Notes: a model not told the origin generated them from the letters alone. Positions 1,138 through 23,485 are shown, counted from the first letter of the stretch. The stretch: DNA of 64,000 nucleotides from Patescibacteria group bacterium (GCA_038065055.1 JBBTRT010000001.1:48893-112892); one strand, 5' to 3'. Translations and numbers: made by a program.

Positions 1138-1140
1138 TCT

Positions 1141-4179: not shown

Positions 4180-4190
4180 TATTCTAATCT

Positions 4191-4508
4191 ATGAAAGCCA
4201 AAATTCACCCTCAATACTACGCCGATTGCCAAGTTTCCTGCGCTTGCGGCAATACTTTTACCACCGGATCAACCCTACCGGCCATTAAAATCGATATTTG
4301 TTCGCAGTGCCACCCCTTCTTTACCGGCAAAATGAAATTCATCGATGCCATGGGCCGCGTTGAAAAATTCTCCCAGCAGTTTAAAGCCGCCCAAGCCAAA
4401 AAATTTGTGAAAAAATCCGACCGCAAAAAGAAAAAAGACCAGAACGATAATAAAACCCCGCTGACTCTTAAAGAAATGTTTGATCAGGAAAAAAAGAAAT
4501 CAAAATGA
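4191..4508 (+). CDS. rpmE: 50S ribosomal protein L31 (Zn-ribbon type, Lys-rich C-terminal tail)
   Basis: Starts [10 protein letters not shown]. CxC...CxxC motif and HPFFTG. 105 aa. Confidence 0.85.
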
Positions 4509-6365: not shown

Positions 6366-6759
6366 CCAACTTTAATTTAACTTTGGCTTTCGCTTGATTA
6401 AAATTTAAAGTTATCTCATAATCGCCCAATTTTTTAATCGGCTTCGGGAGCTCCACTTGGGTTTTTAACACTTTAAACGCTTTCGCAATCTCTTTTTTCG
6501 TCACGCTGCCGTGAATTTTACCTTCAGAACCGGCCTTAACTGCCAATTCCACCACTTTACCATCCACTCTTTCCGCTGCTTGGCGGTCATCTTTTTGGCT
6601 GGATTCTTTTTTAACTACATCGGTTTTTTTCGCTTGTTCCATCTCCTGAATCTTTTTATCGGTTGCCAGCACCGCCAATTTTTTTGGCAACAAATAATTC
6701 ACCGCGTAACCCAAAGCCACTTCTTTAACCTCTTTTGTCTTAATAAAAATTACTTTCAT
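6340..6759 (-). CDS. rplI: 50S ribosomal protein L9
   Basis: MKVIFIKTKEVKEVALGYAVNYLLPKKLA is an N-terminus typical of L9. 139 aa. Confidence 0.85.
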   Translation of the reverse strand: MKVIFIKTKEVKEVALGYAVNYLLPKKLAVLATDKKIQEMEQAKKTDVVKKESSQKDDRQAAERVDGKVVELAVKAGSEGKIHGSVTKKEIAKAFKVLKTQVELPKPIKKLGDYEITLNFNQAKAKVKLKLVEAKDAKK

Positions 6760-6762
6760 GGC

Positions 6763-7989
6763 CTATTGTAATACTATTTCCAGGGCTTTTTCCAGTTGCA
6801 AATCTTCCTCCGGCTTTTCCGGATCGTTTTTCACTTCTTCGTCCGGCGCAATCCCTTTGGTCTCATTTACCCATTGGCCTAAGGGTAAAAGCCATTTTGC
6901 CGTCGTGACATGTAAACCCGCTCCTTCGCCCAGATCCAGTGCCTCCTGAATCGTCCCTTTGCCAAAGGTCTTTTCCCCCACTAATTTGGCCCGCTTATAA
7001 TCTCTTAACACCCCGGCTAAAATCTCTGAAGAAGACGCGCTTCCCTGGTTCACCAGCACCACCAACGGCTCTTTAAGCAGCTTACCGTTAAAATCCACGC
7101 TATAACTTTCCACTTTGTCCTGGCTATTTTTCTGCTGGACCACGACTTTGCCCCGGGGCAAAAACTCGCCTGCGTACCGCACCGCCCCTTGCAAATATCC
7201 GCCCGGATTATTCCTCAAATCCAAAATAACTCCTTTGGCTTTTTGGCTGTTTATCTCTTTCACCGCTTCTTCCCATTCAGTTTCCGTCCGGCCGCCGAAC
7301 CGGGTTAATTTAAGTAATGCTACTTTTTTATCTTCCCCCACCCAGGATAACTCCACGCTTTTTACTACAATCGTATCTCTGGCCATCATGACCTCTTTTG
7401 TTTCACTATCGCCACTGCGTAAAATCGTTAACGTCACTTCAGTCCCTTTGGGGCCGCGGATCAGCTCGACTGCTTCCGGCAAAGTTATCTCGCCGGTATC
7501 TCTGTCAACCCCTTTTTTCTCATCTTTAATCTTCAAGATAAAATCCCCGGCTTTTACCCCGGCCGCTTCTGCCGGTGTCCCGACCAAAGGCGCTATTACC
7601 GCCAGCTGGTTATCCTTAAAACCGAGTTGAATTCCGACTCCTTCAAACGCTCCGTTTAGCTCTTCCTGGGTCGCCTTATTCTGCACCGGCGGCAAAAACA
7701 CCGTGTAAGGGTCGCCCAAAGCCGCCGTCATGCCTTTAATTGCCCCCCAAGTCATCTCCTGAGTTTTTAAATTATCTTTAATTAAATAAGCTTCGTGCAA
7801 TTTATCCCAAACCTGCCAATACAAACCCATATCCACAGAATTTTTATTGCTCGGAACGTATACCTTAAAACTGTTTCTCCTGCCTAAGTTCCAGCCTATT
7901 CCGCCGGAAATTATCATCAAGGCCACCACAATAATCCCGAATCTGACTTGTTTTAAGGACAATTTTACCATTTTCCACTTAGGCCACAA
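6763..7989 (-). CDS. carboxy-terminal processing (S41, Ctp/Prc) protease
   Basis: N-terminal TM segment, PDZ-like region, and S41 motifs LVNQGSASSSEILAG and GEKTFGKG. Confidence 0.8.
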   Translation of the reverse strand: MWPKWKMVKLSLKQVRFGIIVVALMIISGGIGWNLGRRNSFKVYVPSNKNSVDMGLYWQVWDKLHEAYLIKDNLKTQEMTWGAIKGMTAALGDPYTVFLPPVQNKATQEELNGAFEGVGIQLGFKDNQLAVIAPLVGTPAEAAGVKAGDFILKIKDEKKGVDRDTGEITLPEAVELIRGPKGTEVTLTILRSGDSETKEVMMARDTIVVKSVELSWVGEDKKVALLKLTRFGGRTETEWEEAVKEINSQKAKGVILDLRNNPGGYLQGAVRYAGEFLPRGKVVVQQKNSQDKVESYSVDFNGKLLKEPLVVLVNQGSASSSEILAGVLRDYKRAKLVGEKTFGKGTIQEALDLGEGAGLHVTTAKWLLPLGQWVNETKGIAPDEEVKNDPEKPEEDLQLEKALEIVLQ

Positions 7990-8206
7990 AGGGCAGTAAG
8001 GCTAAATGCCGGGCTTGTTTAATTGATTTTGCCAATAGCCGCTGATGCTTGGCGCAGACTCCGGTCCGGCTTCTGGATAAAATTTTTCCGTGCTCGCTAG
8101 TAAATTTTTTCAACGTTTCAAACTCCTGATATTCCGGAAGTTTTTTATTTTGGCAAAAATAGCACTTTAATTTATTCAACCGGTTAGGTTTATTTTGTTT
8201 ATACAT
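7979..8206 (-). CDS. rpsR: 30S ribosomal protein S18
   Basis: 75 aa. CYFC...LKKF.SE.GKILSRSRTG.CAKHQR...IKQAR.LALLPF matches the S18 pattern. Confidence 0.85.
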   Translation of the reverse strand: MYKQNKPNRLNKLKCYFCQNKKLPEYQEFETLKKFTSEHGKILSRSRTGVCAKHQRLLAKSIKQARHLALLPFVA

Positions 8207-8211
8207 ATAGC

Positions 8212-8766
8212 TTAAAAAGGAATATCGTCCGGATTAACGGTTGGTTTTTGTTCTTCTTTCGGTTCCTCTTTGGCTTTGGCCGCTGTTTTTCTCGCCGGCG
8301 CTTTTTCTTCCGCTGCCGGGGGAGGCGCTACTTCAACTGGAATGGCTTCAACTGCCACCGCTTCCGGCTGGTATTCTTCCTGCTGTTGCTGTTCATAACT
8401 GGCGCCGCCTTCCATGCCGTCTTTGCGCTTGGAATCCAGCACAATCATGTTATCGATCACCACTTCCACGGTCGTTCTTTCCTGGCCATCGGCTGTGGTC
8501 CAATTTCTGGTTTGCAACCGGCCCTCCACAAACACTTTTCTGCCTTTAAATAAAAGTTCCGAACATAATTCGGCTAATTTATTCCAGGATACAATCCGGT
8601 GAAATTCAGTTTCTTCCTGTCTTTCCCCTCCGGCTGACGGCTGCCAGGAGCGGTTAGTCGCTAAACCAAAAGTGCAAACCGGCGTTCCCTGCGGCGTATA
8701 TCTTAACTCCGGATCGCGGGTTAAATTCCCAATTAATAAAACTTTATTTAACGATCGGCTCGACAT
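8212..8766 (-). CDS. ssb: single-stranded DNA-binding protein
   Basis: OB-fold N-terminus (LNKVLLIGNLTRDPELRYT), acidic/Pro-rich linker and the canonical C-terminal DDIPF tip. Confidence 0.9.
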   Translation of the reverse strand: MSSRSLNKVLLIGNLTRDPELRYTPQGTPVCTFGLATNRSWQPSAGGERQEETEFHRIVSWNKLAELCSELLFKGRKVFVEGRLQTRNWTTADGQERTTVEVVIDNMIVLDSKRKDGMEGGASYEQQQQEEYQPEAVAVEAIPVEVAPPPAAEEKAPARKTAAKAKEEPKEEQKPTVNPDDIPF

Positions 8767-9070
8767 GATCCCTCCCCTGTCCGCCTTTGGCGGATATTAA
8801 TAAATATCTTAATATTATTTCACCCTGCTTGGCCAATTTATCCAATTCATTTACTTCTTCTTCAGGCAGTTCAATCACGCAAAAACAATAGACTCCCTTG
8901 GTCTGCTTTTTAATCGCGTAAGCCAGCTCGCGCTTGCCTAAAATATTAATTTTGGTTAACTTAGCCTTGACTTTTGTGAGCAATGTTTCGACTAAGGTTT
9001 TAATCTTTTTGTCGTCTTTGCCGGCCTCTTCAGTCAAGATCAAGGCAAATTCGTATGATCGCATTGCCAT
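8744..9070 (-). CDS. rpsF: 30S ribosomal protein S6
   Basis: MRSYEFALIL start (probably Met3, position 9064). Sits in the rpsF-ssb-rpsR-rplI gene order. Confidence 0.8.
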   Translation of the reverse strand: MAMRSYEFALILTEEAGKDDKKIKTLVETLLTKVKAKLTKINILGKRELAYAIKKQTKGVYCFCVIELPEEEVNELDKLAKQGEIILRYLLISAKGGQGRDHVEPIVK

Positions 9071-9076
9071 AGTATA

Positions 9077-9964
9077 TCAGCTGCCGATTTTAAACTCAAC
9101 CACGTCTCCGTCCTGCATCGCGTAATCCCGGCCTTCCAGCCTCATTTTGCCTAATTCCCTGGCCTTCTTCCAACCCCCAACACTGATAAAATCTTCAAAC
9201 TTCACCACTTCGGCTTTAATAAATTTCGCCATAAAATCAGTATGAATTACGCCCGCCGCCTCAACCGCAGTTGCTCCTTTTTTTATAGTCCACGCCCTTA
9301 CCTCTTTCTCCCCGGCCGTTAAAAAAGTTTGCAAGCCCAAAATATCAAATGCGGTTTGAATCACTTTTTCTAACCCGGTTTTAGCGCTTCCCAATTGTTG
9401 CAAATATTCTTTTTGGTCTTCCGCTGACAAATTCGCCAATTCCTCTTCCATTTTGGCGCAAATCCGCAGCCCATCCCCCGCCAACTTATCCTCATCCGTG
9501 TTGTAAACCACTATCCCTGGTTTTTTGGCCAGTAAATTTACTTTTTCTTTCGCGTCCAAATCAGCCAGCTCCAGTTCCATCTGCAGCGTTTCCAAATCTT
9601 CTTTTGGATTGGTCGACCCGGCCCGAATCACATTTTCGTCCTTAAAATCCCGCAGTAAATATAAAATCGCGTCAGTTTCCCGGATGTGGCTTAAAAACTT
9701 ATTCCCCAACCCCTCGCCCTTGGACGCGCCTTTAATCAACCCGGCAATATCCACAAATTTCACCGTTGCCTGCACAATCGGCGCGTTATAAATAGCCGCC
9801 AGCTTTTCTAATCTTTCATCCGGCACCGGCACTACTCCCACATTCGGTTCAATCGTCGCAAACGGAAAATTCGCCACGTAAGCCGCCTGTTTTTTCAGCA
9901 AAGCATTAAATAGCGTAGACTTTCCCACATTCGGCAACCCCACAATCGCGACGCTCAAGCCCAT
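9077..9964 (-). CDS. ychF: ribosome-binding ATPase YchF (N-terminal ~7 codons supplied by the integrated element)
   Basis: P-loop GLPNVGKSTLFNAL, FPFATIEPNVG, C-terminal TGS-like MQDGDVVEFK. The first codons lie right of the 14-bp att core. Confidence 0.85.
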   Translation of the reverse strand: MGLSVAIVGLPNVGKSTLFNALLKKQAAYVANFPFATIEPNVGVVPVPDERLEKLAAIYNAPIVQATVKFVDIAGLIKGASKGEGLGNKFLSHIRETDAILYLLRDFKDENVIRAGSTNPKEDLETLQMELELADLDAKEKVNLLAKKPGIVVYNTDEDKLAGDGLRICAKMEEELANLSAEDQKEYLQQLGSAKTGLEKVIQTAFDILGLQTFLTAGEKEVRAWTIKKGATAVEAAGVIHTDFMAKFIKAEVVKFEDFISVGGWKKARELGKMRLEGRDYAMQDGDVVEFKIGS

Positions 9965-11564
9965 ATCCCAACTTTTCGGTGATTTGTACTGGTAATGGTA
10001 AATGTGCCCATACTTCTGCTCCGCTCCTTTCTGAAACGATAACTTTGTCTATTATATCCCGAACCACCTTAAATTTATCAGCAAAATCTATTTTTTTAAC
10101 CACTTCCGTTGCTTCTTCTGCTAATTCATCAGCTTGAATTGGCAAGTTAATTTTCTCCGATTTACAGGCTAAATCAGCCGTTTGTTTTTGATAAGCCAAT
10201 TTTCTTTTCTTTGCATCATTTATTAAAGTTTGAAACTGCTCAAATTCTAAAGTATCAGCCCCATAAGCTCTAGAATATCGGTTTTCTTCATCCTCAACCT
10301 TCTTTATCATTTCTAATAATCTTTGACGCTCTAACAGGTCTTCACTGCTTGTCATTGAGAACGATTGGAGCCATTTATCAGCATATTTCTTCATTATTGA
10401 ATAATCAAAAAGGTGTTTTTTCAGCTCATGCCACACCATTGAATCCAAAACTGCCGCATTTACACCCTGTGAATTACATCTGTTAGGATAAATGTGACTT
10501 CTTAATCTCTCGATACAGCGATAATAATAACTTCCGGTGCTACTACTGCCATCGCCAACCCTCCTATTCCCACAACCGCAATAAGTTAAACCAGAAAGCA
10601 AATAATCGTATTTCCTTTGTTTACTGGCATATTTTTGATTAAAATCTAAACTCTTTTGAATCTTTTCATAAAGACTGTAATCTTTAATCAACTGTGGAAC
10701 CTTAAAAGCAATCCAATCTTCCCTACTTCTTAATCGCCTGCTAGTTTTCTTTATTTTCTTATATTTTGTATCTTTAATCGGATGTTTTGCCACAACAGAT
10801 TCGGATTTGTTGTAATAAGCCTTACCCGTAACATAAGTATCACACTTCAGTATTCTGACAATCGGACCCTTTGTCCAAAAATCACTTTTTCTCTTTTTAG
10901 GTTTTATACCTAAATCATAAAGATTCTTTTGTATCTGATTGATTGAAAACTTATCCACTCCAAACCAATTCCAAATCAATCTAACTGCCTTGGCTTCATC
11001 ATCATCAATAACACAGCTAAGCGGTTCTTTCGGACCGCTTCTAACAAATTTAAAACCATATAGAGGAAAACCGTTGATAATCACTCCATTCCTAGCCTTG
11101 TATAGTTTCCCTCGCCTCATTCTTTCGGCTATCTTAACCCTTTCGTATTCATGAAAGACCCCCTGCATGCTCTGTAACACCCTTGTTTCTGGACTATCTG
11201 CCTGAACGTCATGCAAAGATATAAACTTAATATCCCTATCGGCTAACTCCTCAATGATTATTTCCTGATGGGCGAAAGTCCTAGACAACCTGCCCCGATC
11301 ATAGACATAAATCGCATTAAATTTTCCCTCTTTGGCCGCATCCCTCATTAAATCAAGAGATGGCCTAGCAATCATCTCACCGCTCCACCCATCGTCAATA
11401 AAAATATTATTAGGTAAAAGCACATTGCCATCAGTAGTTATTCTTTTTTTAACCTCATCCAACTGTGATTCAATTGTTTGTTCGTTCTCTTGCCTACCAG
11501 TACTCACTCTGGCATAAAGAGCGGCATTTAGAGGTTCGTGGATCTTGTCTGTAATATCATTCAT
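9906..11564 (-). CDS. large serine recombinase (integrase)
   Basis: Catalytic motif ALYARVSTGRQ, a recombinase domain, a Cys-rich zinc-ribbon (CGCGNRR...YYYRC...CNSQ) and a coiled-coil tail. Likely start is MNDITDK (11564). The last ~13-15 codons lie in ychF/host sequence. Confidence 0.9.
   Translation of the reverse strand: MNDITDKIHEPLNAALYARVSTGRQENEQTIESQLDEVKKRITTDGNVLLPNNIFIDDGWSGEMIARPSLDLMRDAAKEGKFNAIYVYDRGRLSRTFAHQEIIIEELADRDIKFISLHDVQADSPETRVLQSMQGVFHEYERVKIAERMRRGKLYKARNGVIINGFPLYGFKFVRSGPKEPLSCVIDDDEAKAVRLIWNWFGVDKFSINQIQKNLYDLGIKPKKRKSDFWTKGPIVRILKCDTYVTGKAYYNKSESVVAKHPIKDTKYKKIKKTSRRLRSREDWIAFKVPQLIKDYSLYEKIQKSLDFNQKYASKQRKYDYLLSGLTYCGCGNRRVGDGSSSTGSYYYRCIERLRSHIYPNRCNSQGVNAAVLDSMVWHELKKHLFDYSIMKKYADKWLQSFSMTSSEDLLERQRLLEMIKKVEDEENRYSRAYGADTLEFEQFQTLINDAKKRKLAYQKQTADLACKSEKINLPIQADELAEEATEVVKKIDFADKFKVVRDIIDKVIVSERSGAEVWAHLPLPVQITEKLGYGLERRDCGVAECGKVYAI
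9936..9949. repeat. attL-like core, 14-bp perfect direct repeat (AACCCCACAATCGC)
   Basis: Identical 14-mer at 18264-18277. Both copies are followed by diverged versions of the ychF start region. Confidence 0.75.
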
Positions 11565-11733
11565 TTTTCGCACCCGCCTCAAATAACTTTTCTAGTTTAT
11601 CAGCTTCAATTCTCCAAGATTTCCCAAACTTAAAAGCCGGAATCTTCCCTTTAACAGCCAAGCGGTAAACCGTCCTCTGATTAACTCGTAGCTTCATAGC
11701 CACTTCCTCTATTGTCAGATACTTGTTTTCCAT
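11557..11733 (-). CDS. excisionase-family helix-turn-helix DNA-binding protein
   Basis: LTIEEVAMKLRVNQRTVYRLAVKGKIPAFKFGKSWRI fits the MerR/Xis-type HTH pattern. Lies directly upstream of the recombinase. Confidence 0.7.
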   Translation of the reverse strand: MENKYLTIEEVAMKLRVNQRTVYRLAVKGKIPAFKFGKSWRIEADKLEKLFEAGAKNE

Positions 11734-11896
11734 ATTGTACTTCATTGTACTTATGCGTCATTCCCTTTGTCAAGCGTCTCTTCATTAAAATATTATCTCT
11801 GGCAATCTCAAAAATTCTGGCATAAGCAATCTTAATTCTGCTTTCATCAGCAATAATATTTTTAAAGGTTACCTTTGGGACCAAAATTCTGTTCAT
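11681..11896 (-). CDS. hypothetical small protein
   Basis: ATGA start/stop coupling to the upstream P-loop gene. Overlaps the Xis-like gene by ~50 nt, so uncertain. Confidence 0.35.
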   Translation of the reverse strand: MNRILVPKVTFKNIIADESRIKIAYARIFEIARDNILMKRRLTKGMTHKYNEVQYGKQVSDNRGSGYEATS

Positions 11897-13272
11897 ATGG
11901 CTTTCCCTCCAAAGATTTCCTCTAATACCCCCCCGTTCAACTCACTATTGTTTTGGGTTTTAGATATAGTGAGTGGGGTGGTGGGGTAAATCAGTGTTTT
12001 TCTCTTATCAGACTGATCCTGCTCCTGAAAAATCAAACCTGAAGCCTCTAGAATGGGTATAATCTGCTGTCTTAACTGCCAATCAGGTAAATGCCGCCCA
12101 TAAACCTGAAAATGCTTCTGTAGGATGTCCTGACGGGTTAATCCGAGCTTTACCACCCCATCTAACTCACTATTTCTCTCTTTGTAGGCCGCTAAAATTA
12201 TGTCTTTGTAGAGATTAAAAACATATGGCGGCAGGTTTAACTCTTGGCTTTCAGATATTTCATCCCAGATATGGAATGCTTCCCTAATATCGTCATCATT
12301 TGCCACCAATGTTTCCCCGTCCCTCTCCCTAAACCATAGGTTTAACAAGGCTAGAACCTTAATCAGGCCAATAATCCTACCAATATCTCTCTGGTGGCGT
12401 GGTTTAAGCATCTTGGCCTTCTTAAAAAACAGCTCTTGTAGCAACGCCGGGGACCCAATCTTAATTTCCTTGATTGATTCTGCCCGAATCACTAAAATTC
12501 TTTCCATCAATAGCTTTCTCTCTGGGTCCGAATCTAAAAAGCTATCATAAGACAAACTGTCTGCTTCCTTTCTAATCTTCTGGTAAATCGCCTCTCTAAT
12601 TTTCTCTTGGTTAATCTCCGGCGACAACAATAGAAACCTAGTCGCCTCCTGCTCATCTAGCATCAGCCCAGCCGTGCAGAAAATCACTGTCGGGTAACCA
12701 ATAAGATAAATATTTTTGGTCCGTAACCCCGCCTTTTGTGATTTATCGGTTATCTTGAGACGAATCTCCTTTTTATCATGAGAAAGCATAGGCCGGAGGT
12801 GTTGAAGCAGTAAAGTATGCGGCTGGTCAAGGAAAATAAGGATTTTTCGGGAAAGATCAACAATATATCCCTTTTTTGCCTTATTAAGCACGCCATAATC
12901 ATGGAAAAAGGCCGTCGGACTACAATACCCCACTTCTATCACATCTTGCTCTGGGAACAGCTTCCCTATTTCCGTTGGTATAAATGACTTACCTGTAGAA
13001 GAAGGGGCATTAAAACTGATATTTATCTGGGAATCTTTAGTATAGGCAGACAATAACGCCAAGAAAGCAATCAATTTATTAATTTCATCTCTTTTAATTG
13101 TCAATCCTAGAATTTTTAACAAGTCATCCGCAGTTATTGGCTTAAACTTAGAAACATCAATCTCAACAGGCTTCTCATCGGACCTACTATCTTCTGGCTT
13201 TGGAGCTTCAAACCCAAACTGTTCTTTAACCAATTCTGATACCGGCTGAGAAATATCATTCGTATTGGTCAT
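11893..13272 (-). CDS. P-loop NTPase, phage/plasmid replication (primase/helicase)-like
   Basis: Walker A APSSTGKS and a Walker B-like ILIFLDQ. 459 aa. The position in the element suggests a replication protein. The family was not identified. Confidence 0.45.
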   Translation of the reverse strand: MTNTNDISQPVSELVKEQFGFEAPKPEDSRSDEKPVEIDVSKFKPITADDLLKILGLTIKRDEINKLIAFLALLSAYTKDSQINISFNAPSSTGKSFIPTEIGKLFPEQDVIEVGYCSPTAFFHDYGVLNKAKKGYIVDLSRKILIFLDQPHTLLLQHLRPMLSHDKKEIRLKITDKSQKAGLRTKNIYLIGYPTVIFCTAGLMLDEQEATRFLLLSPEINQEKIREAIYQKIRKEADSLSYDSFLDSDPERKLLMERILVIRAESIKEIKIGSPALLQELFFKKAKMLKPRHQRDIGRIIGLIKVLALLNLWFRERDGETLVANDDDIREAFHIWDEISESQELNLPPYVFNLYKDIILAAYKERNSELDGVVKLGLTRQDILQKHFQVYGRHLPDWQLRQQIIPILEASGLIFQEQDQSDKRKTLIYPTTPLTISKTQNNSELNGGVLEEIFGGKAI

Positions 13273-13465
13273 AGAATTTCTTCGCTAATTTGCTAACCGC
13301 TTCCTGCTTTGATAGATAAACCGATTCGTAAAGTTTTTTCCTGTTTTGGTCCTTCTCTTCGGTATAAGCCAAAAACCAATCCGTCTCTTTATTTATGGCT
13401 ATTTTTAGCTGGTTAATATCTGATAAAAGTTGAAGTGTTTCTTCTTCAAAACTATTCATAATCAA
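13256..13465 (-). CDS. hypothetical protein
   Basis: 69-aa ORF tightly packed in the element operon. No motif. Confidence 0.4.
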   Translation of the reverse strand: MIMNSFEEETLQLLSDINQLKIAINKETDWFLAYTEEKDQNRKKLYESVYLSKQEAVSKLAKKFYDQYE

Positions 13466-13707
13466 TTTTCAAATAATCTAGACTTAATAATTCTCATTTG
13501 TGAACTAAATTGCTTTGGTTCAATCCTTAAGTCGCCACGCCAGTAAGATTCCACCAATTCATCCAATCCGGATTCTCTTTTAAATTGAAATTGAGCTTTT
13601 TTGGGGTTGGACTTATCGATTAGATCTAACGGATACCAAAGAGAAATTACAGAAGTTAATACTAAATCAGAGGTTAAAAAAACGTCTTTTGTACTTTTAA
13701 TAATCAT
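13462..13707 (-). CDS. hypothetical protein
   Basis: 81-aa ORF with a 4-nt overlap with the downstream ORF. No motif. Confidence 0.4.
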   Translation of the reverse strand: MIIKSTKDVFLTSDLVLTSVISLWYPLDLIDKSNPKKAQFQFKRESGLDELVESYWRGDLRIEPKQFSSQMRIIKSRLFEN

Positions 13708-13718
13708 ATTTTTTATAC

Positions 13719-13748
13719 AAAAAAGGCCACGACATAATTGTCGTAGCC
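13719..13748 (-). terminator. Rho-independent terminator after the HTH gene
   Basis: On the minus strand: GGCTACGAC-AATTAT-GTCGTGGCC hairpin (8/9 bp paired) followed by TTTTTT. Confidence 0.55.
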
Positions 13749-13799
13749 TCTCTTGAAATTTTACAAGTATTGGCTAGGGACTCTCGAAGTTCCCTTAAT

Positions 13800-14003
13800 T
13801 TATAATTTTTTTGTGCCGGCTACTATCAAATCCGGTTTAACTTCACTTGCTGTTATTGTGCAATTTAAATCGGCTTTTCGTATCCTGTTAGTTTTTCCAA
13901 ACCTGCAGGCGGGAATAATCCCAACATTAATATATCTTAAGACTGTTTGACGGCTCACTCCCAATTTTTTTGCAGCTTCACCTGTAGTTAAAAAATCTTT
14001 CAT
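13800..14003 (-). CDS. excisionase-family helix-turn-helix DNA-binding protein
   Basis: LTTGEAAKKLGVSRQTVLRYINVGIIPACRFGKTNRIRKADL has the same HTH pattern as 11557-11733. Confidence 0.7.
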   Translation of the reverse strand: MKDFLTTGEAAKKLGVSRQTVLRYINVGIIPACRFGKTNRIRKADLNCTITASEVKPDLIVAGTKKL

Positions 14004-14009
14004 AATACG

Positions 14010-14037
14010 ATTGTAACATATTTAACGATCTTGTCAA
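14010..14037 (-). promoter_or_regulatory. sigma70-like promoter, probably giving a leaderless transcript
   Basis: Minus strand: TTGACA, 16 nt, TACAAT, 6 nt, then the ATG of the HTH gene. Confidence 0.45.
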
Positions 14038-14072
14038 TATGGTGATTTTTGTTATAATTTTTTTACTTATTA

Positions 14073-15101
14073 TTACAAATTGCATTGTTTTTGATAATAA
14101 GAACTATTTTTAACCATATTGGTAATTTGGTTATTCATCTGTTTGCTATAACAATCAGGATTCGATACTCCACAGATACTCATTGCCCTTCCAGAAAAAT
14201 CAAGAAATCCTTTTACAGTCATTAATGGATCATTATTAGAATAATTTGTTGTAGCAATTCTTCCCACTAAAGAATCTTGCTCTTCTTGATTAAATGCTCC
14301 TAGCATCATTAACTGATCCTGAAATGCTTTAATCTCATTTTCATAACAAGACATTACAAGACCATTGTTTAATGTTGACAAATATATTCCCGCATGAGAC
14401 ATTTCATGAGATAACAAAAAAGCAGTTAATACATCATCTTTTATCTTATAAGAATTATCTACAAAAATTGTAAGCCTATCCATGGAAGATTTATTTTCAT
14501 CAAATGTAAATAATCCTTCAACATTATCCAAATTTGCATATTGAATATCTAAGCAATTATTCATACTAAAATCGCCCACTTTGTCTCCCATTTTACTTAT
14601 AGTTCTCTGTTTTATTAAACTTAATGCTCTCTTAAATTCTTCAGGCATTTCATATGGCGCTTCTCTAATACAAAGAGGGTCGGGCGGTGAATAATACCAG
14701 TTTCCATCTTCAAATACCCATTTTTTATAACCTCTTAATTCTTTTCTAGTAGTACAATTATCGTCTTCACAGACGGTGTTATTTCTATCAATATATCCGA
14801 CACTGTCTTTTATAACGATATTATTTATAGTCACCTTTTGTTTTCCAATATTTGGGGATTCTTTTGCACCTTTTATATAATCTTCCAATGAACTTTTCTT
14901 TTTTATAGAGGAACTATAAAAGTTGTAGGCTTCTGAATAATTTTTATCATCTAATAAAGAAACAAATTTGTTAAATCTTTGTTTTAATAAATCCTCTTTA
15001 CTCGTAAATAAATGTAAATTTTTTAAATTAAGGAAGCCAACAATAAAAAGTAAAATTATCCCCGCTAAAATTATTTCTAATTTTGTGAATCCTTTTTTCA
15101 T
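14073..15101 (-). CDS. membrane-anchored protein with HExxH metalloprotease-like motif
   Basis: N-terminal TM helix (LEIILAGIILLFIVGFL) and the motif LLSHEMSHAGIY. 342 aa. No closer assignment. Confidence 0.45.
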   Translation of the reverse strand: MKKGFTKLEIILAGIILLFIVGFLNLKNLHLFTSKEDLLKQRFNKFVSLLDDKNYSEAYNFYSSSIKKKSSLEDYIKGAKESPNIGKQKVTINNIVIKDSVGYIDRNNTVCEDDNCTTRKELRGYKKWVFEDGNWYYSPPDPLCIREAPYEMPEEFKRALSLIKQRTISKMGDKVGDFSMNNCLDIQYANLDNVEGLFTFDENKSSMDRLTIFVDNSYKIKDDVLTAFLLSHEMSHAGIYLSTLNNGLVMSCYENEIKAFQDQLMMLGAFNQEEQDSLVGRIATTNYSNNDPLMTVKGFLDFSGRAMSICGVSNPDCYSKQMNNQITNMVKNSSYYQKQCNL

Positions 15102-15104
15102 GTT

Positions 15105-15941
15105 TTATTGGTTACAGGCCTGTAACGCTACATTTTTTTGATTACCATAAATAATTTGACATTCTCTTTCAACTGACGTAGCGCCATACAAAACACTGCA
15201 ACCACGCATTAAATCATCATATTTAACTGTCACTTCGCTTTTACATTTTGCAATATCTTCAGCAGATTTTTGTGGGGTTTGTGGTGAAACAATAATCGGC
15301 TGGTAGGATGGAATAACTACTTTTTTACTTGCCCAATATTCATCTGTTTTAACTTTACATTCATCATAAGTAAGTTTCCCAAAATCAAAGTTAAAATTAC
15401 TATCTTTGTAATTACAATCAATTTTTACAGACCCGAAATCTATGGGGGCAATATCGTTTGTTGAACCAGTATTCTGATTATTAATCTGGGCTTGATCTCT
15501 ATCGCACTGATTTCTATCTTTATAAAAAATCCACTTATCGCCTATCTGACAACAGGTACTTTTATCACACTCGCTTTTTTTAATATATATCGTTCCGCCG
15601 CCACACTCAGCAGTCGTCCTACAATTCACCATATAATCCGAATTACTATTAATATTAGAATTTATAGGTTTTGTCTCCGGCTCACTAGATGGTAATAAAG
15701 ATGGACTTACAATAGGACTTGGTAAAACAATTTTTTGCCGTTCACGACCAGCTCTTTGCTCTTTAATAATTGGCCCAGCTAAAACAACAATTGGCACTAT
15801 TAAAACTAATACTATTGCAAAAAACAACCCTTTCCCAACCTTTTTAATATCTTGTTTCGCTTCGACAGATTTAGATTTTTTTGCTCTCTTATGTTTTATT
15901 AGAACTGCACCTGTAGATCTTTTTGCAGATTTGTTATTCAT
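15105..15941 (-). CDS. membrane-anchored Cys-rich protein
   Basis: Basic N-terminus, one TM helix, a Ser/Pro linker, then a domain with about 14 Cys. 278 aa. Confidence 0.4.
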   Translation of the reverse strand: MNNKSAKRSTGAVLIKHKRAKKSKSVEAKQDIKKVGKGLFFAIVLVLIVPIVVLAGPIIKEQRAGRERQKIVLPSPIVSPSLLPSSEPETKPINSNINSNSDYMVNCRTTAECGGGTIYIKKSECDKSTCCQIGDKWIFYKDRNQCDRDQAQINNQNTGSTNDIAPIDFGSVKIDCNYKDSNFNFDFGKLTYDECKVKTDEYWASKKVVIPSYQPIIVSPQTPQKSAEDIAKCKSEVTVKYDDLMRGCSVLYGATSVERECQIIYGNQKNVALQACNQ

Positions 15942-16010
15942 TTGAATAGAATTATAACATTTTTACCAATTCAGAGATTAAAAGAGTAAATCGTGAATTA
16001 AAATATAGAA

Positions 16011-16436
16011 TTATCTGAAAAGTCTATTGAGACTTCGAAATCTTTTATTATCATTCTGCTGATCATAAGTAAGCCTATGGCATTTTCTGCAAGCTGAAAC
16101 CTGCGAGTTAGGAGGAATATATAAATACCGCACCTTTCTTCCACACACCACACATACAAACCAAAAAATAAATCCTTTCCCTAAGTTGGACCTTGTGTAA
16201 GTCATTTTTACGCTATTAGGTTCAGTAAACTCTGTTTTCCCAAAATTTTCCTGTTTTAAATTAAAGGTAACATAACACTCTATTTGTTGAATAAGGTTTT
16301 TTACACCCTCTTCTGTTTTTAGATCAAATTCGATAAAGCCCTTATTCTTAAAAAGAAAGTTTCTTACGCATACACTGGCACTAATTTTTTGCGAATCTTC
16401 AACTACTGGACGTTTACCATAGGCAAGTTTAAACAT
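16011..16436 (-). CDS. hypothetical zinc-ribbon protein
   Basis: CVVCGRK...CRKCH pair of CxxC motifs near the C-terminus. 141 aa. Confidence 0.4.
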   Translation of the reverse strand: MFKLAYGKRPVVEDSQKISASVCVRNFLFKNKGFIEFDLKTEEGVKNLIQQIECYVTFNLKQENFGKTEFTEPNSVKMTYTRSNLGKGFIFWFVCVVCGRKVRYLYIPPNSQVSACRKCHRLTYDQQNDNKRFRSLNRLFR

Positions 16437-16463
16437 AATTTTGACCGAAATTAATAATAATCA

Positions 16464-17066
16464 TTAAGGATTTTTAACTTGAACCACCTGATTTTGCCCA
16501 ACAACGGCAGTATTGGTTCTTATATTAAGCTGCAGAAGGGGTAATTTAAGCATTCTAAGGGCCTGTAGCGAGGTTAAATAGTGTCTTTCAGCCCTATCCA
16601 ACTCCCTACTCATTACATTTAAATAACCAACGCCAATGTCTGTTACAGAACACTTGTCTAAATAGTCATTAATTTTAAATTGAGACACTAGAACCCTAAT
16701 AAAATTAAGAGCGGCAATTTCTGCCAGAGATTTTTCACTAGAAGTTTTACAGTCATATTCCTTCTTTAAATTCTTTAAATGCTCTAGGGCAAACACTCTG
16801 AATCTATCAGGTATTGCAGAAAGCATTAAAAGCCCTTGATCAAACTCAAACAGGGTCATAGCTTTGTAGGCATTTGTTTCCGGACCCATTTCTTTAGGCC
16901 CATTGAATCCCTCCAACTCTTTATCTGCTAATTTCAAAATGTTCTCAGAGTTAAATCCAGTCCCTGCACTTTGAATAGATTTTCTTATGTCTTCAATTGT
17001 TCTTGGTTTAGTAATTTTGTTATCAGGCATGTGGAATCTGCAGATATGGCACCCTTGAGGCAACAA
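16464..17066 (-). CDS. hypothetical protein
   Basis: 200-aa ORF with no motif. The true start may be the internal MPDNK. Confidence 0.35.
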   Translation of the reverse strand: MLPQGCHICRFHMPDNKITKPRTIEDIRKSIQSAGTGFNSENILKLADKELEGFNGPKEMGPETNAYKAMTLFEFDQGLLMLSAIPDRFRVFALEHLKNLKKEYDCKTSSEKSLAEIAALNFIRVLVSQFKINDYLDKCSVTDIGVGYLNVMSRELDRAERHYLTSLQALRMLKLPLLQLNIRTNTAVVGQNQVVQVKNP

Positions 17067-17165
17067 TCCTACCTAAATAATCTCTTTGGATAATTTCTCT
17101 TTCTTTTCTGGCTCCGGGTAAAACTACTTTGAAGTAAAAATCAAAAGTGGGGACGGTGAAAAGTG

Positions 17166-17190
17166 AATCCCAACCGATAAACTACTCATA
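17166..17190. repeat. third, degenerate copy of the ychF 5' / att right half
   Basis: AATCCCAACCGATAAACTACTCATA compared with 18272-18293 AATCGCTACCGATAAACTCATA gives 20/22 identity plus a 3-nt insertion. The reverse strand reads ATG AGT AGT TTA TCG GTT GGG ATT (MSSLSVGI). Confidence 0.5.
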
Positions 17191-17242
17191 GTTTTACTTG
17201 ACAAACCCCCTTAATAAACTATATAATAACCTCAAATTGGCA

Positions 17243-17683
17243 TTAGCCACGACCTCCCTGCTTCGGTGGGGAGGGCAAAACAAAAAATTTCGAAATCTCT
17301 TCTAAAACTTTATTAAAATCACCTGTATCTAATTCAGCAAGTTTATTCCACATTCTCTTTGTACTAAAAACTCGAATTTGAGAAATCATTACCGAAACAG
17401 ATTTACTTCTAACAGACACGGGAATATAATATTTGTTATCTTTTAGCTTCGTACTCATGGGAATACCCAGGAAAAGTTCCCTGTTAAACTTTTTAACAAC
17501 TAGGACTGGTCGGACAAAATTTAAATTTTTACCATCTTCTTCAAAACCAACATTAACACCAACAGCAATCCACCAAATATCTCTTTCTTTGAAAAAGGGT
17601 GCCTCTTTTTCTTGATAATGACAAGTCTTTTTCTTTTTTATCCAACCGTCGAAATCTTTAGAAAAATCAGAAGTTTGACTCAT
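17243..17683 (-). CDS. PemK/MazF-like toxin domain protein (no adjacent antitoxin seen)
   Basis: RDIWWIAVGVNVGFEEDGKNLNFVRPVLVVKKFN...ISQIRVFSTKR resembles the MazF/PemK fold signature. 146 aa. Confidence 0.5.
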   Translation of the reverse strand: MSQTSDFSKDFDGWIKKKKTCHYQEKEAPFFKERDIWWIAVGVNVGFEEDGKNLNFVRPVLVVKKFNRELFLGIPMSTKLKDNKYYIPVSVRSKSVSVMISQIRVFSTKRMWNKLAELDTGDFNKVLEEISKFFVLPSPPKQGGRG

Positions 17684-17700
17684 GAAAGTATTTTAACACG

Positions 17701-18231
17701 CTAAGGAGATTTTACAGGAAAGCACTTAATAGAAAAGATTTCATTTGTACTTAATGTTGTCTGAACAACACAATCCTTAGCTCCATTAAGTTGAGCATAG
17801 CCGATTGAAGTATCGTTTAATGAAGGACTTAGATAACCTTTTTGCTTTAGTTCCTGAATACCAGTTGCACATCTACCTTCTGCCAAACAAAACCTGTTTC
17901 CTTGCTGAGAAATCTCCTGTACATTTGCCTTTTTAATCGCGTCATTCGCTGTATTTATTTGTTTTTTAGGCGAAAGAGTTACTAAAAAGAATGCAATAAT
18001 TATTCCTAATAGTGGCAAACCTATTCCAACTCCAGTAACCCACCATTTCGCCTTTTTACCCCAAGGTGCTGCCGCCCACATTACAATTATTCCGATTAGA
18101 AAAGTGGGGACAAAAAAAAGAAGAACTATTGTCACCCAACTTCGCCAATCCTGATACCACTTTTTCATCATAATTTTAGTATACACGAAAACTCCCAATT
18201 CAGGCATTTTTGAATGAACGATCTGCCCCAA
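17701..18231 (-). CDS. membrane protein, unknown function
   Basis: Three hydrophobic helices followed by a ~80-aa C-terminal domain with 4 Cys. The true start is probably MMKKWYQDW. Confidence 0.4.
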   Translation of the reverse strand: MGQIVHSKMPELGVFVYTKIMMKKWYQDWRSWVTIVLLFFVPTFLIGIIVMWAAAPWGKKAKWWVTGVGIGLPLLGIIIAFFLVTLSPKKQINTANDAIKKANVQEISQQGNRFCLAEGRCATGIQELKQKGYLSPSLNDTSIGYAQLNGAKDCVVQTTLSTNEIFSIKCFPVKSP

Positions 18232-18232
18232 G

Positions 18233-18292
18233 TTATTTCTTTATTGTAGGGTGATGAAAAATAAACCCCACAATCGCTACCGATAAACTCAT
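18233..18292 (-). pseudogene. ychF: stranded ancestral 5' end of ychF
   Basis: ATG AGT TTA TCG GTA GCG ATT GTG GGG TT.. (MSLSVAIVG) then runs into element sequence and stops after 19 aa. Its ATG overlaps the pckA TGA stop (ATGA). Confidence 0.65.
18264..18277. repeat. attR-like core, 14-bp perfect direct repeat (AACCCCACAATCGC)
   Basis: Identical to 9936-9949. Confidence 0.75.
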
Positions 18293-19794
18293 ATCCCGCC
18301 AAATCTCTTAAAATTTTCTTTAAACAAACTCGCTAACTTTTTTGCCTCCGCCTCATAAGCGCTTTTATCTAACCAGGTATTTTTCGGGTTTAAAATCTCT
18401 GCCTCCACCCCTTTAACCTGTTTCGGAATCATTAACTCAAATAACGACATTTTTATATAATCCGCCTTACCCAATCTAGCCTCCAAAATCTCGGTCACAA
18501 TTTTCCGGGTAATCCCCAAATTCATTCTCTGTCCCACTCCGTAGCCGCCGCCGCTCCAACCAGTATTCACTAAATACACCTGACAATGATGCTGCTTAAT
18601 TTTCTTTTCTAAAATTTGGGCGTATTTCGTCGGGTGCAAAGTCAAAAACGGTTGGCCGAAACAAGGGGAAAATGCCGCTTTCGGTTCATTAACCCCTCTC
18701 TCTGTCCCGGCAATCTTAGCGGTGTAACCGGACAAAAACCAATATTTTGCCTGTTCTGGGGTTAACTTGGCTACCGGCGGCAAAATTCCAAAACTGTCAC
18801 AGGTTAAAAAAATCACGGTTTTCGGGTGTCTTCCGGTTAAACTCTTTACCCGTCGCTCAATATGTTCAATCGGGTAGCTCATCCGAGTATTTTCAGTTTT
18901 TGACGCATCCGTAAAATCGACTTTTCCCTTATCATCCACTACCACATTCTCAAGCAGCGCATTTCTTCTAATCGCCTTATAAATATCCGGCTCGCCTTCT
19001 TTGGAAATATTAATCATCTTGGCATAACAGCCTCCCTCCAAATTAAAAATTCCTTCCTCATCCCATCCATGCTCATCGTCGCCGATCAATTTTCTTTTTG
19101 GATCATGGGACAAAGTCGTCTTCCCTGTCCCGGACAAACCGAAAAATAAGGCCGTGTTTCCGTCTTTCCCCTCATTCGCGCTGCAGTGGAAAGATCCAAT
19201 TCCCTTAAGCGGCAACCAATAATTCGCCAGCGAAAACATGCTTTTTTTGATTTCCCCGCCGTACCAGGTGCCGCCAATCACTGTCTCTTGTTTTTCCAAA
19301 TTAATTGCAATAAACACCTCGGAATTTAAACCGTATTTTTCCCAATCTTTGGCAACTGCCTTTGGCGCTGAATATATCGTCCAATCAATAATAGAAGGGT
19401 CCGACCCTTCCGTTTTCCTTAAAAACATATTCTTAAAAAAATGCGCCTGCCAGGCAATTTCCGTTATCAGCCTCACCTTCATCTGCGCCTCTTTTCTTGC
19501 CCCCAAATAACCATCCATCACATATACTTTTTTATCTTTCAATTGCTCTTTAACCAAACTGGAAACATAATCCCAAGTTTCAATCGCCATTGGTTTATTC
19601 GGGCTCGTCGGATTTTTTTCGTCCCGCCACCACACCTGTTCTGACCCCGGCCCGCCCGCTACGATAAACTTATCTTCCGGCGATCGGCCGGTAAATTTTC
19701 CCGTGTCCACGCTCACTGCTCCAAATTCCGTCACCACTCCCTCATTTTTTTCGGCCTTAAATAACTCTTCGTAACTTAAATTATATTTATCCAT
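18289..19794 (-). CDS. pckA: phosphoenolpyruvate carboxykinase (ATP)
   Basis: 501 aa. Kinase-1a motif GLSGTGKTTLS, GDDEHGW and the NTGWSGG region. Confidence 0.9.
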   Translation of the reverse strand: MDKYNLSYEELFKAEKNEGVVTEFGAVSVDTGKFTGRSPEDKFIVAGGPGSEQVWWRDEKNPTSPNKPMAIETWDYVSSLVKEQLKDKKVYVMDGYLGARKEAQMKVRLITEIAWQAHFFKNMFLRKTEGSDPSIIDWTIYSAPKAVAKDWEKYGLNSEVFIAINLEKQETVIGGTWYGGEIKKSMFSLANYWLPLKGIGSFHCSANEGKDGNTALFFGLSGTGKTTLSHDPKRKLIGDDEHGWDEEGIFNLEGGCYAKMINISKEGEPDIYKAIRRNALLENVVVDDKGKVDFTDASKTENTRMSYPIEHIERRVKSLTGRHPKTVIFLTCDSFGILPPVAKLTPEQAKYWFLSGYTAKIAGTERGVNEPKAAFSPCFGQPFLTLHPTKYAQILEKKIKQHHCQVYLVNTGWSGGGYGVGQRMNLGITRKIVTEILEARLGKADYIKMSLFELMIPKQVKGVEAEILNPKNTWLDKSAYEAEAKKLASLFKENFKRFGGI

Positions 19795-20923
19795 AATTTT
19801 TCTCCGTAAATTTCTTAATCAACTCTACTCCCGCTTCAATCTGTTCCATTGACGTCGCAAAACTCAAGCGAATAAATCCCGGCCCGCCAAAAGGTGTTCC
19901 CGGAATCACCGCCACCCCACCCTCTTCTAATAATTTCTCGCAAAAACTTTGGTCGTCTTTGGTTACTTGGCTGATGTCCGCCCAAACATAAAACGCCCCA
20001 TCCGGCAACACTGCTTTTATTCCCTGAATTTGGTTTAATTTTTCCACCATTAGTTTCCGCCTTTTGGTAAATTCCCGCCGCATTGTTGCCGGAAACCCCC
20101 CGGCTTTTTCCCAAGCTACCAACGCCCCTTTTTGGGAAAAACTGCTGGGGTTGGACGAAATCTGGTCCTGTAACGCGCTCATGGCTTTAATCAGTTCCAG
20201 CGGCCCGGCGCCGTAACCCAACCGCCACCCAGTCATAGCAAAAGTCTTTGAAAAAGCATTAATCGTTAAAGTTTTTTGATAGACCTCTTGGCTTAAACTG
20301 GCAAAACTGACCGGCTTTTGCCCACCATAATAAAAACAGTCATAGCACTCGTCAGATAACACCCGCAAATCAGGGTAATTTTTTATTATCTGAGCGATTT
20401 TTTCCAACCCGGACCGATCAATAATCTCTCCGGTCGGGTTGCTGGGCGAATTAATTATCAGCACCTTGGTTTTTGCGCTTAAACTTTTATCCAAATCATC
20501 CCAATCATTAATAAACACCGACTTCCCTCCGGCCACCTTCACCATATCCGGGTAACTCACCCAATACGGCGCTTTAATTATTACTTCATCGCCCTTATCC
20601 GCCAAACACATAATCGCCTCAAATAAAATTTGCTTTGCCCCATTGGAAACAATTATCTGTTCCGCCTCATAAATTAATTTATTTTTTTGTTTCAATTTAT
20701 CTACCAAGACTTTTTTTAATTCCGGTATGCCTGAAGATTCCGTATACTTCGTAAAGCCCTCATCCAACGCCTTCTTCGTGGCTTCTTTAATGGCGAGCGG
20801 GGTGTCAAAATCCGGCTGCCCCGCCGCAAAACTGACTATTTTTTTTCCAAGAGAACTTAACTGTTTGGCTTTAGCCGTAATCGCTAAGGTCGCCGAAGGG
20901 GTTAAGCGGTACTTATCCAGCAT
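19787..20923 (-). CDS. class I/II aminotransferase (aspartate aminotransferase-like)
   Basis: GQPDFDTP, NPSNPTG, and the PLP-lysine context SKTFAMTGWRLGY. Confidence 0.8.
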   Translation of the reverse strand: MLDKYRLTPSATLAITAKAKQLSSLGKKIVSFAAGQPDFDTPLAIKEATKKALDEGFTKYTESSGIPELKKVLVDKLKQKNKLIYEAEQIIVSNGAKQILFEAIMCLADKGDEVIIKAPYWVSYPDMVKVAGGKSVFINDWDDLDKSLSAKTKVLIINSPSNPTGEIIDRSGLEKIAQIIKNYPDLRVLSDECYDCFYYGGQKPVSFASLSQEVYQKTLTINAFSKTFAMTGWRLGYGAGPLELIKAMSALQDQISSNPSSFSQKGALVAWEKAGGFPATMRREFTKRRKLMVEKLNQIQGIKAVLPDGAFYVWADISQVTKDDQSFCEKLLEEGGVAVIPGTPFGGPGFIRLSFATSMEQIEAGVELIKKFTEKNYG

Positions 20924-23484: not shown

Positions 23485-23485
23485 A

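Follow-up and report, generated by a model that had tools for sequence, protein, structure and literature searches.

A probable tandem insertion at the start of ychF in a Microgenomates genome, with a large serine recombinase whose reading frame crosses attP

The 64,000-nucleotide (nt) stretch of a Patescibacteria group bacterium analysed here (GCA_038065055.1, JBBTRT010000001.1:48893-112892; referred to as the window, with positions counted from its first letter) carries 8.3 kb of DNA between pckA and ychF that is missing from a close relative. Two insertions probably lie in tandem here, at the ychF 5′ end of a genome of the Microgenomates (Patescibacteria): an intact 7.2-kb element carrying a large serine recombinase (LSR) and, outside it, a module that has no recombinase, with the reading frame of the LSR crossing the attP site of its element. 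The first-pass annotation of this DNA had described a single island bounded by a 14-bp repeat. All features of the window discussed lie on the minus strand unless the plus strand is named.

In the mechanism that we propose, attB would extend from the ychF promoter through the start codon to the P-loop codons, and the LSR would recombine it with attP at the GT of codon 5. Insertion would displace the promoter, the start codon and codons 1–4 of ychF at once; promoter and start would be lost together because the native -10 box lies only 6–8 nt before the ATG. The element would substitute a synonymous start (MGLS) situated in the 3′ end of its own recombinase gene, and the native promoter and start would end up facing the left end of the element. 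In the un-integrated or tandem state the LSR would be a protein of 587 amino acids (aa) with a tail of about 47 aa encoded at the opposite end of the element; insertion would swap this tail for about 10 out-of-frame ychF residues, leaving a protein of 552 aa. The outer unit, at whose edge stands a further stranded ychF start, would be either an older element in decay or a satellite.

Anatomy of the locus and the position of the crossover

The 14-bp direct repeat AACCCCACAATCGC occurs exactly twice in the window, at 9936–9949 and 18264–18277, and is not a dispersed motif, the next-best match being a single site with two mismatches. An exact scan, translations and Pfam searches confirmed this repeat, the two ychF-like starts beside it and the 552-aa LSR, all as first annotated. 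The left copy of the repeat lies within ATGGGCTTGAGCGTCGCGATTGTGGGGTTGCCGAATGTGGGAAAG, the start of the live ychF gene (9077..9964), where ATGGGCTTGAGCGTCGCGATTGTGGGGTTGCCG... opens an ORF (open reading frame) of 295 aa. Its product is a YchF/OLA1 P-loop ATPase, with Pfam matches to MMR_HSR1 (PF01926, the G domain) and YchF-GTPase_C (PF06071, C-terminal) and a GxPNVGKS P-loop that is conserved across 80 relatives. The right copy lies within ATGAGTTTATCGGTAGCGATTGTGGGGTT (18264..18292), here called the outer stranded ychF start, whose frame enters AT-rich DNA and is closed by a stop after 19 codons. The ATG of this start shares bases with the TGA of pckA (18289..19794; 501 aa, PEPCK_ATP match). 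The G+C content is 0.28–0.42 in the island and 0.43–0.49 in the flanks. At the other end ychF lies downstream of the recombinase on the same strand, as had been stated, and the two genes overlap: ychF begins inside the recombinase gene, 59 nt ahead of the recombinase stop codon (9906–9908), which falls within ychF past the junction. The genes behind ychF are rpsF-ssb-rpsR. This position of the recombinase stop, a second stranded ychF start further in (17189–17173) and a PemK gene (17243–17683) are additions to the first-pass annotation, and its description of ychF as essential is not supported, a ychF deletion being viable in S. pneumoniae (PMC6375853).

The earlier annotation had also proposed looking for a related genome without the island, and one was found. 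Contig L085, from the same aquifer, has a pckA at least 90% identical to that of the window, with ychF directly after it. Its positions 1–5286 correspond to 23586–18301 of the window at 97.9% identity and its positions 5364–12348 to 9958–2974 at 99.6%, with 77 nt of L085 where the window has 8.3 kb. On this alignment the two differ by an insertion/deletion, the 8.3 kb being extra DNA in the window. Identity to L085 ends at 18301, and the last three codons of pckA differ between the two. The inequality of the flanks, 99.6% on the ychF side (2974–9958) and 97.9% on the pckA side (18301–23586), suggests different recombination histories on either side of the insertion.

In L085 the pckA stop is followed by a 62-nt spacer ending ...GGGGTAAAATGACAGC and then by ATGTCTTTAAGCGTCGCGATTG, with TAAAAT placed 6 nt ahead of the ATG. 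The same spacing is common among the 80 species-level ychF loci that we compared (Amesbacteria, Woesebacteria, Blackburnbacteria and other Microgenomates; L005-L084): a TAnnnT box, mostly TGnTAAAAT, ends 4–9 nt (mostly 6–8) before the ychF ATG in 54 of the 68 that are free of a recombinase, which suggests that the ychF mRNA is leaderless in this clade. In none of the 80 does pckA lie upstream of ychF. The ancestral translational coupling pckA-ATGA-ychF that had been postulated is therefore not supported, and the outer stranded start is preceded by GGGAT, a signature of starts within recombinase 3′ ends (L035, L083, L088-L090) and not of host promoters.

Two loci served to place the junction at ychF: L085, and L087, which has a recombinase with 94% identity to that of the window but a host ychF with just 50%. 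ATGGGCTTGAGCGT is found both in the live start and in L087, the two diverging at nt 15; from nt 15 on, the live start is identical to that of island-free L085. Thus attR is of element type through nt 12 and of host type from nt 15. At the inner stranded start the converse holds: the sequence is of host type up to the codon before GT (nt 15; with an extra AGT codon) and of P′ type right after it. Before the GT the inner start reads TTATCG and the P arm of the element TTGAGC. Because GT is the only stretch common to both junctions (9952–9951 and 17174–17173), we deduce that the GT of ychF codon 5 (Val5; 9951..9952 in attR) is the central crossover dinucleotide. GA, in codons 6–7, was considered from a comparison of L089 with the window and was discarded, as L087 has no GA there and attL is of host type up to the codon before GT.

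With the crossover at this GT, the element would supply codons 1–4 of ychF only (12 nt, 9964–9953, plus the GT core), MGLS replacing MS(S)LS, rather than the first seven codons as annotated, and the remainder of the gene would be of host origin. The 14-mer would then be host ychF codons 6–10 kept in the outer copy, and neither an integration boundary nor a recombination core. The attP predicted for the LSR reads ...GGGCTTGAGC GT TGGGATTCACTTTTC..., the deduced inner attP junction ...ATGGGCTTGAGC-GT-TGGGATTCACTTTTCACC, and the reconstructed pre-insertion attB ...ATGAGTAGTTTATCG-GT-CGCGATTGTGGGG.

The other end of the element is marked by the inner stranded ychF start (17173..17189; ATG AGT AGT TTA TCG GT), which would form the B arm of the LSR's own attL with its GT core at 17174–17173. 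From 17189 the minus strand reads ATG AGT AGT TTA TCG GTT GGG ATT CAC TTT TCA CCG TCC CCA..., the start passing into a P′ arm (17023..17172) that encodes, in the frame of the recombinase, the conserved tail SLFTVPTFDFYFKVVLPGARKEREIIQRDYLGRIVASRVPYLQIPHA. The stop of this tail (17025–17023) overlaps the ATG of a 188-aa gene. The P′ arm was recovered by tblastn with E=7e-20, and start and P′ arm together (17191–17054) matched a family profile in nhmmer with E=1.6e-30. The recombinase's own element is accordingly delimited, from its att sites, as 9953–17172 (7,220 bp, apparently intact), in place of one element bounded by the 14-mer, and the outer 1.09 kb would be separate.

The recombinase, its C-terminal tail and its target

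The integrated form of the recombinase (9906..11564; 552 aa) has the Pfam domains Resolvase (PF00239, E=5.6e-27, catalytic), Recombinase (PF07508) and Zn_ribbon_recom (PF13408), and its YARVSTxRQ motif is invariant in the family alignment. Its best PDB sequence match was the catalytic domain of TP901-1, in a search that matched the catalytic domain only, and its best NCBIfam match was CcrB, far under the cut-off. An AlphaFold2 (AF2) model of one full-length relative has long helices at residues 383–467 forming a coiled-coil, and Foldseek matched the same model to full-length cryo-electron microscopy (cryo-EM) structures of integrase-att complexes (PhiC31, Bxb1) over about 535 columns with E down to 3e-18. 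By its catalytic, recombinase, zinc-ribbon and coiled-coil regions the protein belongs to the large serine recombinases. Its final 10 codons and stop are ychF sequence read out of frame.

In other copies the LSR frame continues through the ychF-like start into a conserved segment, e.g. ...GYGTERRD-THFAVPTFDFYFKIELPKANKERIIMERDNLGRI..., as in the tandem loci L089 and L110, in L099 and L132 (the two exceptions to the adjacency with ychF described below) and in the database fragment P0134. Full-length forms of 573–603 aa exist in the protein database, one of them on a 6.2-kb contig that has element-type genes only and no terminal overlap. When a virtual attP is made from the window by joining the frame at 9945 to 17166, the result is an open frame of 587 aa ending ...ERRD-SLFTVPTFDFYFKVVLPGARKEREIIQRDYLGRIVASRVPYLQIPHA, in which the conserved tail of about 47 aa comes from the far end of the element. 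Searching with the tails by tblastn returned about 40 copies of the conserved segment, almost always directly after a stranded ychF start that was in every case one base out of the frame of the tail; in other genomes, about 35 instances of this pairing of stranded start and P′ arm were counted upstream of ychF.

Pairwise divergence among 14 correctly framed copies of the tail was calculated by codon position. Over the first 24 nt it was 0.33, 0.34 and 0.29 at positions 1, 2 and 3 respectively; from nt 24 to 60 it was 0.28, 0.19 and 0.47, and from nt 60 to 114 it was 0.41, 0.23 and 0.53. Thirteen of the 14 copies are open in the frame of the tail; of the other two frames, one is open in no copy and the second in at most one. 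We read this pattern as constraint at the DNA level near the crossover and selection on the protein beyond it. Pfam gave no match to the tail peptide; in the AF2 model its distal part forms a moderately confident beta-hairpin (residues 559–573, block pLDDT up to 86), and the att-encoded stretch is modelled as a low-confidence linker. A related recombinase gene in L170 (471–1965) is broken by an IS3-family (rve) transposase, and its 3′ fragment is still in frame with the conserved tail.

On insertion the predicted isoform changes from 587 aa to 552 aa, as the sequence itself shows; a role of this change in controlling directionality or activity is hypothetical. We put forward tentatively, and with more doubt than belief, a wider proposal: the gene of this serine integrase would be split by its own integration, the beta-hairpin tail being confined to elements that are excised or that have another copy downstream; the tail swap would act as a sensor of the integration state that biases directionality or activity, making the enzyme the serine-recombinase counterpart of the 'suicidal' tyrosine integrases of archaea; the ychF start, as a target is recreated by each insertion, would be an integron-like accretion site at which recombinase-less cassettes accumulate and can be moved in trans; and the family might provide an integration system for candidate phyla.

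Homologous recombinases also sit beside ychF elsewhere, a point that the first-pass annotation had left to be checked. In 9 of the 80 species-level loci an LSR of 34–66% identity has its 3′ end overlapping the ychF start. A metagenome scan with an alignment of the ychF-locus recombinases gave 80 loci (36–94% identity), 61 of them with at least 150 nt of downstream sequence; in 59 of these 61 the ychF start lies within -55 to +140 nt of the LSR. Host YchF in the metagenomic loci is 42–73% identical to the window protein. Targeting of the ychF 5′ end is, on these counts, a trait of the family. Together with the empty site in L085 this upholds the earlier proposal that the element inserts at the 5′ end of ychF and preserves the gene by giving it a new start. 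Counting remnants as well as recombinases, 26 of the 80 sampled species show traces at the ychF start. Diverse LSR clusters have been described that converge on a single conserved target (Durrant et al. 2022, PMC10083194).

Some loci show other states of the target. In L042, near 10001, ychF follows a P arm of recombinase type (...aaaagttggggtATGAGTTTATCAGT) and the locus has no recombinase match, so that an element-supplied start may have become fixed after loss of the element. L077 has the same P-arm signature at a contig edge and is uninformative. A partial ychF duplicate in L016 (6900–7199; residues 1–92, 74% identical to the window protein), 3 kb upstream of the live gene, is far longer than the usual stranded start.

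Genes of the element and the outer module

Next to the recombinase, and overlapping its start, is a gene for an excisionase-like protein (11557..11745) that matches Pfam HTH_17, a helix-turn-helix (HTH) domain, and the PHROG families of excisionases and recombination directionality factors. A gene of this kind stands directly upstream of the recombinase in most related loci, and its product is a candidate directionality factor. A putative promoter-like site, TTGACA-18-TACAAT (11744..11773; 11/12 in a consensus scan), lies upstream of the unit formed by this gene, the recombinase and possibly ychF, and no strong terminator was found on the minus strand 3′ of the HTH-recombinase unit. Because this site precedes the unit and no strong terminator follows it, ychF and rpsF-ssb-rpsR are probably served by read-through after insertion.

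Further upstream, a 459-aa Walker-A protein (11893..13272) is predicted to be a replicative helicase. It has no match of its own in Pfam, PHROG or NCBIfam. More than 2,262 homologues were found, the top 120 at 65–100% identity; homologues stand alone or are often fused to Toprim or PrimPol/PriCT primase domains, some carry PF27228, and the protein recurs at 46–67% identity in many related elements. It is probably the replicative helicase of the element. A DUF5659 protein (13462–13707; Pfam), homologues of which recur in related elements, and a second HTH_17 protein (13800–14003; Pfam) follow, with a putative promoter-like site from the consensus scan at 14010–14037. Two Xis-type HTH proteins and a Walker-A replication-like protein had been annotated at the outset and are all present. 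The remaining cargo consists of four orphan ORFs of 342, 278, 141 and 188 aa (14073..17030), which had no match in Pfam, PHROGs or NCBIfam. The closest related elements, L089 and L090 (recombinase identity 77–79%), start at the equivalent point and have the same two left-end genes, homologues of the 188-aa and 141-aa proteins at the equivalent position.

No virion or packaging genes were found, the PHROG matches being to excisionase-type HTH proteins only, and IMG/VR held no close relatives of the recombinase (22–23% identity only); the element is thus not recognisable as a temperate phage. Searches of all ORFs against Pfam, NCBIfam and PHROG found no relaxase, coupling protein or type IV secretion genes, and it is likewise not recognisable as an integrative and conjugative element. 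Related elements span 4.3–11 kb. It is best described as a small integrative plasmid-like element with a core of a helicase-type replication protein, an excisionase-like HTH protein and a recombinase.

The outer module (17190..18263; 1.07 kb, without a recombinase) is absent from L085. It encodes a 176-aa membrane-like protein (17701–18231) and a PemK/MazF toxin (17243–17683; PemK_toxin match) with no recognisable antitoxin gene adjoining. At its pckA end a possible degenerate P′ arm (about 18210–18263) gave a weak nhmmer match (18242–18210, E=0.043) that is the second best in the window and is on the correct strand and side, so that the module starts with a marginal P′-arm match and ends at the inner stranded start. 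Apart from one AGT codon and a single base, the outer stranded start agrees with the start reconstructed for the pre-insertion state, and L042 has a start very like the outer one (...GGGGTATGAGTTTATCAGT). That the outer copy might be a plain L085-like attB half-site was considered and rejected, as it departs from L085 at six of its first 15 nt, every change being synonymous, though the flanks are 98–99.6% identical. Three origins are considered for the module: it may be the remnant of an older element from which the recombinase was deleted, the deletion fusing pckA to an old element-supplied start; it may be a recombinase-less satellite; or it may be a product of gene conversion.

Two side observations concern this module. 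Between the stop of PemK and the inner stranded start lie 53 nt that contain, on the plus strand, a perfect sigma-70 consensus (17198–17227; TTGACA-18-TATAAT, 12/12) directed into the PemK gene in antisense; it could regulate the orphan toxin in antisense, or could have arisen by chance. Logan contigs from four runs (L001-L004) all end or begin at about 17708–17735, in the 3′ end of the 176-aa gene, where there is no att site, which hints at a population variant or a repeat.

Tandem arrangements occur elsewhere. L089 and L110 have a second recombinase upstream, and L034 has a recombinase 3′ remnant with a stranded start. Arrays of three units, each a stranded start with a P′ arm, lie upstream of ychF in L052 (5948/6941/9132), L038 (6332/7585/8843) and L131 (1129/3919/4760); L052 and L038 have no recombinase match in the locus, and L131 has a recombinase beside ychF. 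In L052, the same gene 3′ end (...SDHxPLxLDFxL*) stands ahead of two of the units. To judge by their layout, these arrays resemble cassette accretion.

Alternative explanations, known systems and implications

Had a single 8.3-kb island bounded by the 14-mer been inserted at a coupled pckA-ATGA-ychF and supplied seven codons, the outer attP junction would be ...GCGATTGTGGGGTT-TATTTTTCATC and the attB pckA-ATGAGTTTATCGGTAGCGATTGTGGGGTT-GCCGAATG. Such an event would explain why the entire 8.3 kb is missing from L085, why the 14-mer is exact and unique, why the outer start overlaps the pckA stop with pckA left intact, and why that start is nearly identical to the reconstructed pre-insertion start. 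We nevertheless regard it as unlikely. At 1.09 kb into the island there is a complete conserved P′ arm that has a stranded start of its own, and the closest related elements end exactly at the inner attL; the outer copy keeps 15 nt of host-type ychF after the GT, unlike the junctions of the family; in L085 and most relatives a spacer with a -10 box takes the place of ATGA coupling, and the neighbourhood of pckA and ychF is not shared by any of the 80 related species. Only slightly less improbable is that the conserved segment at the left end is no part of the recombinase, being a DNA site (the P′ arm) or a separate small gene with which frame continuity is incidental. Gene callers do place ORFs of 59–75 aa at this spot in integrated copies (P0157, P0162), an excised form was not recovered, and Pfam has no model for the tail; but conservation extends over 140 nt, far past a serine-integrase half-site, substitutions are rich in third positions exactly in the recombinase frame, the frame relation to the stranded start is equal in about 35 copies, and every contiguous P-O-P′ copy is an uninterrupted fusion. 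Separate initiation of the tail is unlikely because the window has an in-frame TAG six codons upstream and no ATG after it. Far less credible than either is an assembly chimera, with junctions from different genomes or artefactual duplicated starts. The genome is metagenome-assembled and the Logan contigs of four runs break in the outer module; yet both junction types recur base-for-base in independent assemblies from several runs (L001-L003 and L086 for the pckA side, L004 for the ychF side), a single contig, L004, runs from PemK across the inner junction and the whole element to ychF and the genes behind it, and the same architecture is present in dozens of unrelated assemblies.

Several observations count against a tandem array of two insertions and an attP-crossing frame. 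The two stranded starts are near-identical (28/29 nt plus one codon), which is unusual for independent serine-integrase junctions and may reflect gene conversion or duplication. The native start of L085, ATGTCTTTAAGCGTC, is unlike either of them, and the pre-insertion state of the window lineage is for this reason reconstructed rather than observed; the B arm of the inner attL also lacks the canonical -10 spacing. Neither a circular attP junction nor an empty attB of the exact predicted sequence was recovered: an exact search of JGI metagenomes for the outer stranded start, which would catch both attL and a pckA-ATGA-ychF empty site, gave 0 matches, as did one of IMG/VR for the outer-type attP junction. 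Terminal overlaps indicating circularity were absent from L099, L105, L126, L132 and L171-L174, among them the contigs with full-length recombinases; of these, L132 and L173 are chromosomal because they also carry host-like genes. The mobility of the window's copy is therefore unproven. The AF2 model on which the hairpin is based is of medium quality (pLDDT 73.7, pTM 0.49), and the tail could be maintained mainly in tandem arrays.

The LSR of the window shares with the large serine integrases of temperate phages and integrative elements (Bxb1, PhiC31, A118/LI, TP901-1 and SPbeta SprA) its domains, the long coiled-coil and a fold matching the cryo-EM structures, as well as a small accessory HTH gene adjoining; the crossover deduced here would likewise be a 2-bp core in a short site inside a conserved gene. 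It differs from these enzymes in that the target is the extreme 5′ end of a gene with its promoter, the gene being repaired and not disrupted; in that the recombinase ORF would cross attP, its C-terminus depending on the integration state; and in that the carrier is a 4–11-kb plasmid-like element of Patescibacteria and not a phage. In SCCmec and other staphylococcal cassette chromosome (SCC) elements, the serine recombinases CcrA/CcrB act at the 3′ end of rlmH (orfX), which is kept intact, and tandem insertions build up, some of them cassettes without a recombinase that are flanked by repeated att-like sites. The likeness extends to a serine recombinase at the end of a housekeeping gene that stays intact and to tandem accretion; SCC, however, inserts at a 3′ end whereas the ychF elements occupy a 5′ end, ccr lies inside SCC and does not span att, and no promoter or start is replaced. 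Displaced gene ends are rebuilt in tRNA genes and in icd by phage 21/e14, where 3′ ends are replaced; these elements also carry a copy of the displaced gene end, but the end in question here is the promoter and start codon. To replace these from within the recombinase's own coding sequence is unusual.

The 'suicidal' tyrosine integrases of the SSV1 type, from archaeal viruses and plasmids, have attP in the integrase gene, which is partitioned by integration; this layout has been proposed as a built-in control of directionality and is described as exclusive to archaea (PMC8371274). An attP inside the integrase gene, with an enzyme structure tied to the integration state, is the one respect in which the two systems work alike. 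The SSV1-type enzyme, though, is a tyrosine recombinase with a tRNA target and has a large part split off, whereas the enzyme here is a bacterial serine recombinase, and not an SSV-type integrase, with only a tail of about 47 aa exchanged. A pneumococcal prophage remnant lies between dnaN and ychF with its integrase gene directly upstream of ychF, and its integration rearranges the ychF promoter and lowers ychF expression, which excision restores (PMC6375853; PMC8637289). In that case attB is intergenic, in the -35 region, with a 14-bp core and no replacement of coding sequence, and the host phylum and type of element are different. Preservation of target genes by integrative elements has been described as a general rule (PMC7192596). 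Within the literature covered, which is incomplete so that absence of evidence is all it offers, the pneumococcal prophage was the only relevant case; no paper was found to describe serine integrases from Patescibacteria or the candidate phyla radiation, a serine integrase with ychF as its target, or a serine-integrase frame that crosses attP. What appears to be new here is an LSR reading frame that crosses attP and has a conserved C-terminal tail, and the family-wide targeting of ychF.

Mobile elements of Patescibacteria are poorly known, and this family has one fixed target in a universally conserved gene. It is large and coherent, with hundreds of recombinases and thousands of helicase relatives in the databases, and about one-third of the sampled Microgenomates species have a copy or a remnant upstream of ychF. 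An element of this kind can apparently occupy the promoter and start codon of a conserved gene without being lethal, by means of a start hidden in its recombinase gene. Two recombinase isoforms tied to the integration state would be a testable idea about the directionality of serine integrases, enzymes that matter for genome engineering. The recombinase and its attP, with the natural attB in ychF, are a candidate site-specific integration vector for the bacteria of the candidate phyla, which are genetically intractable.

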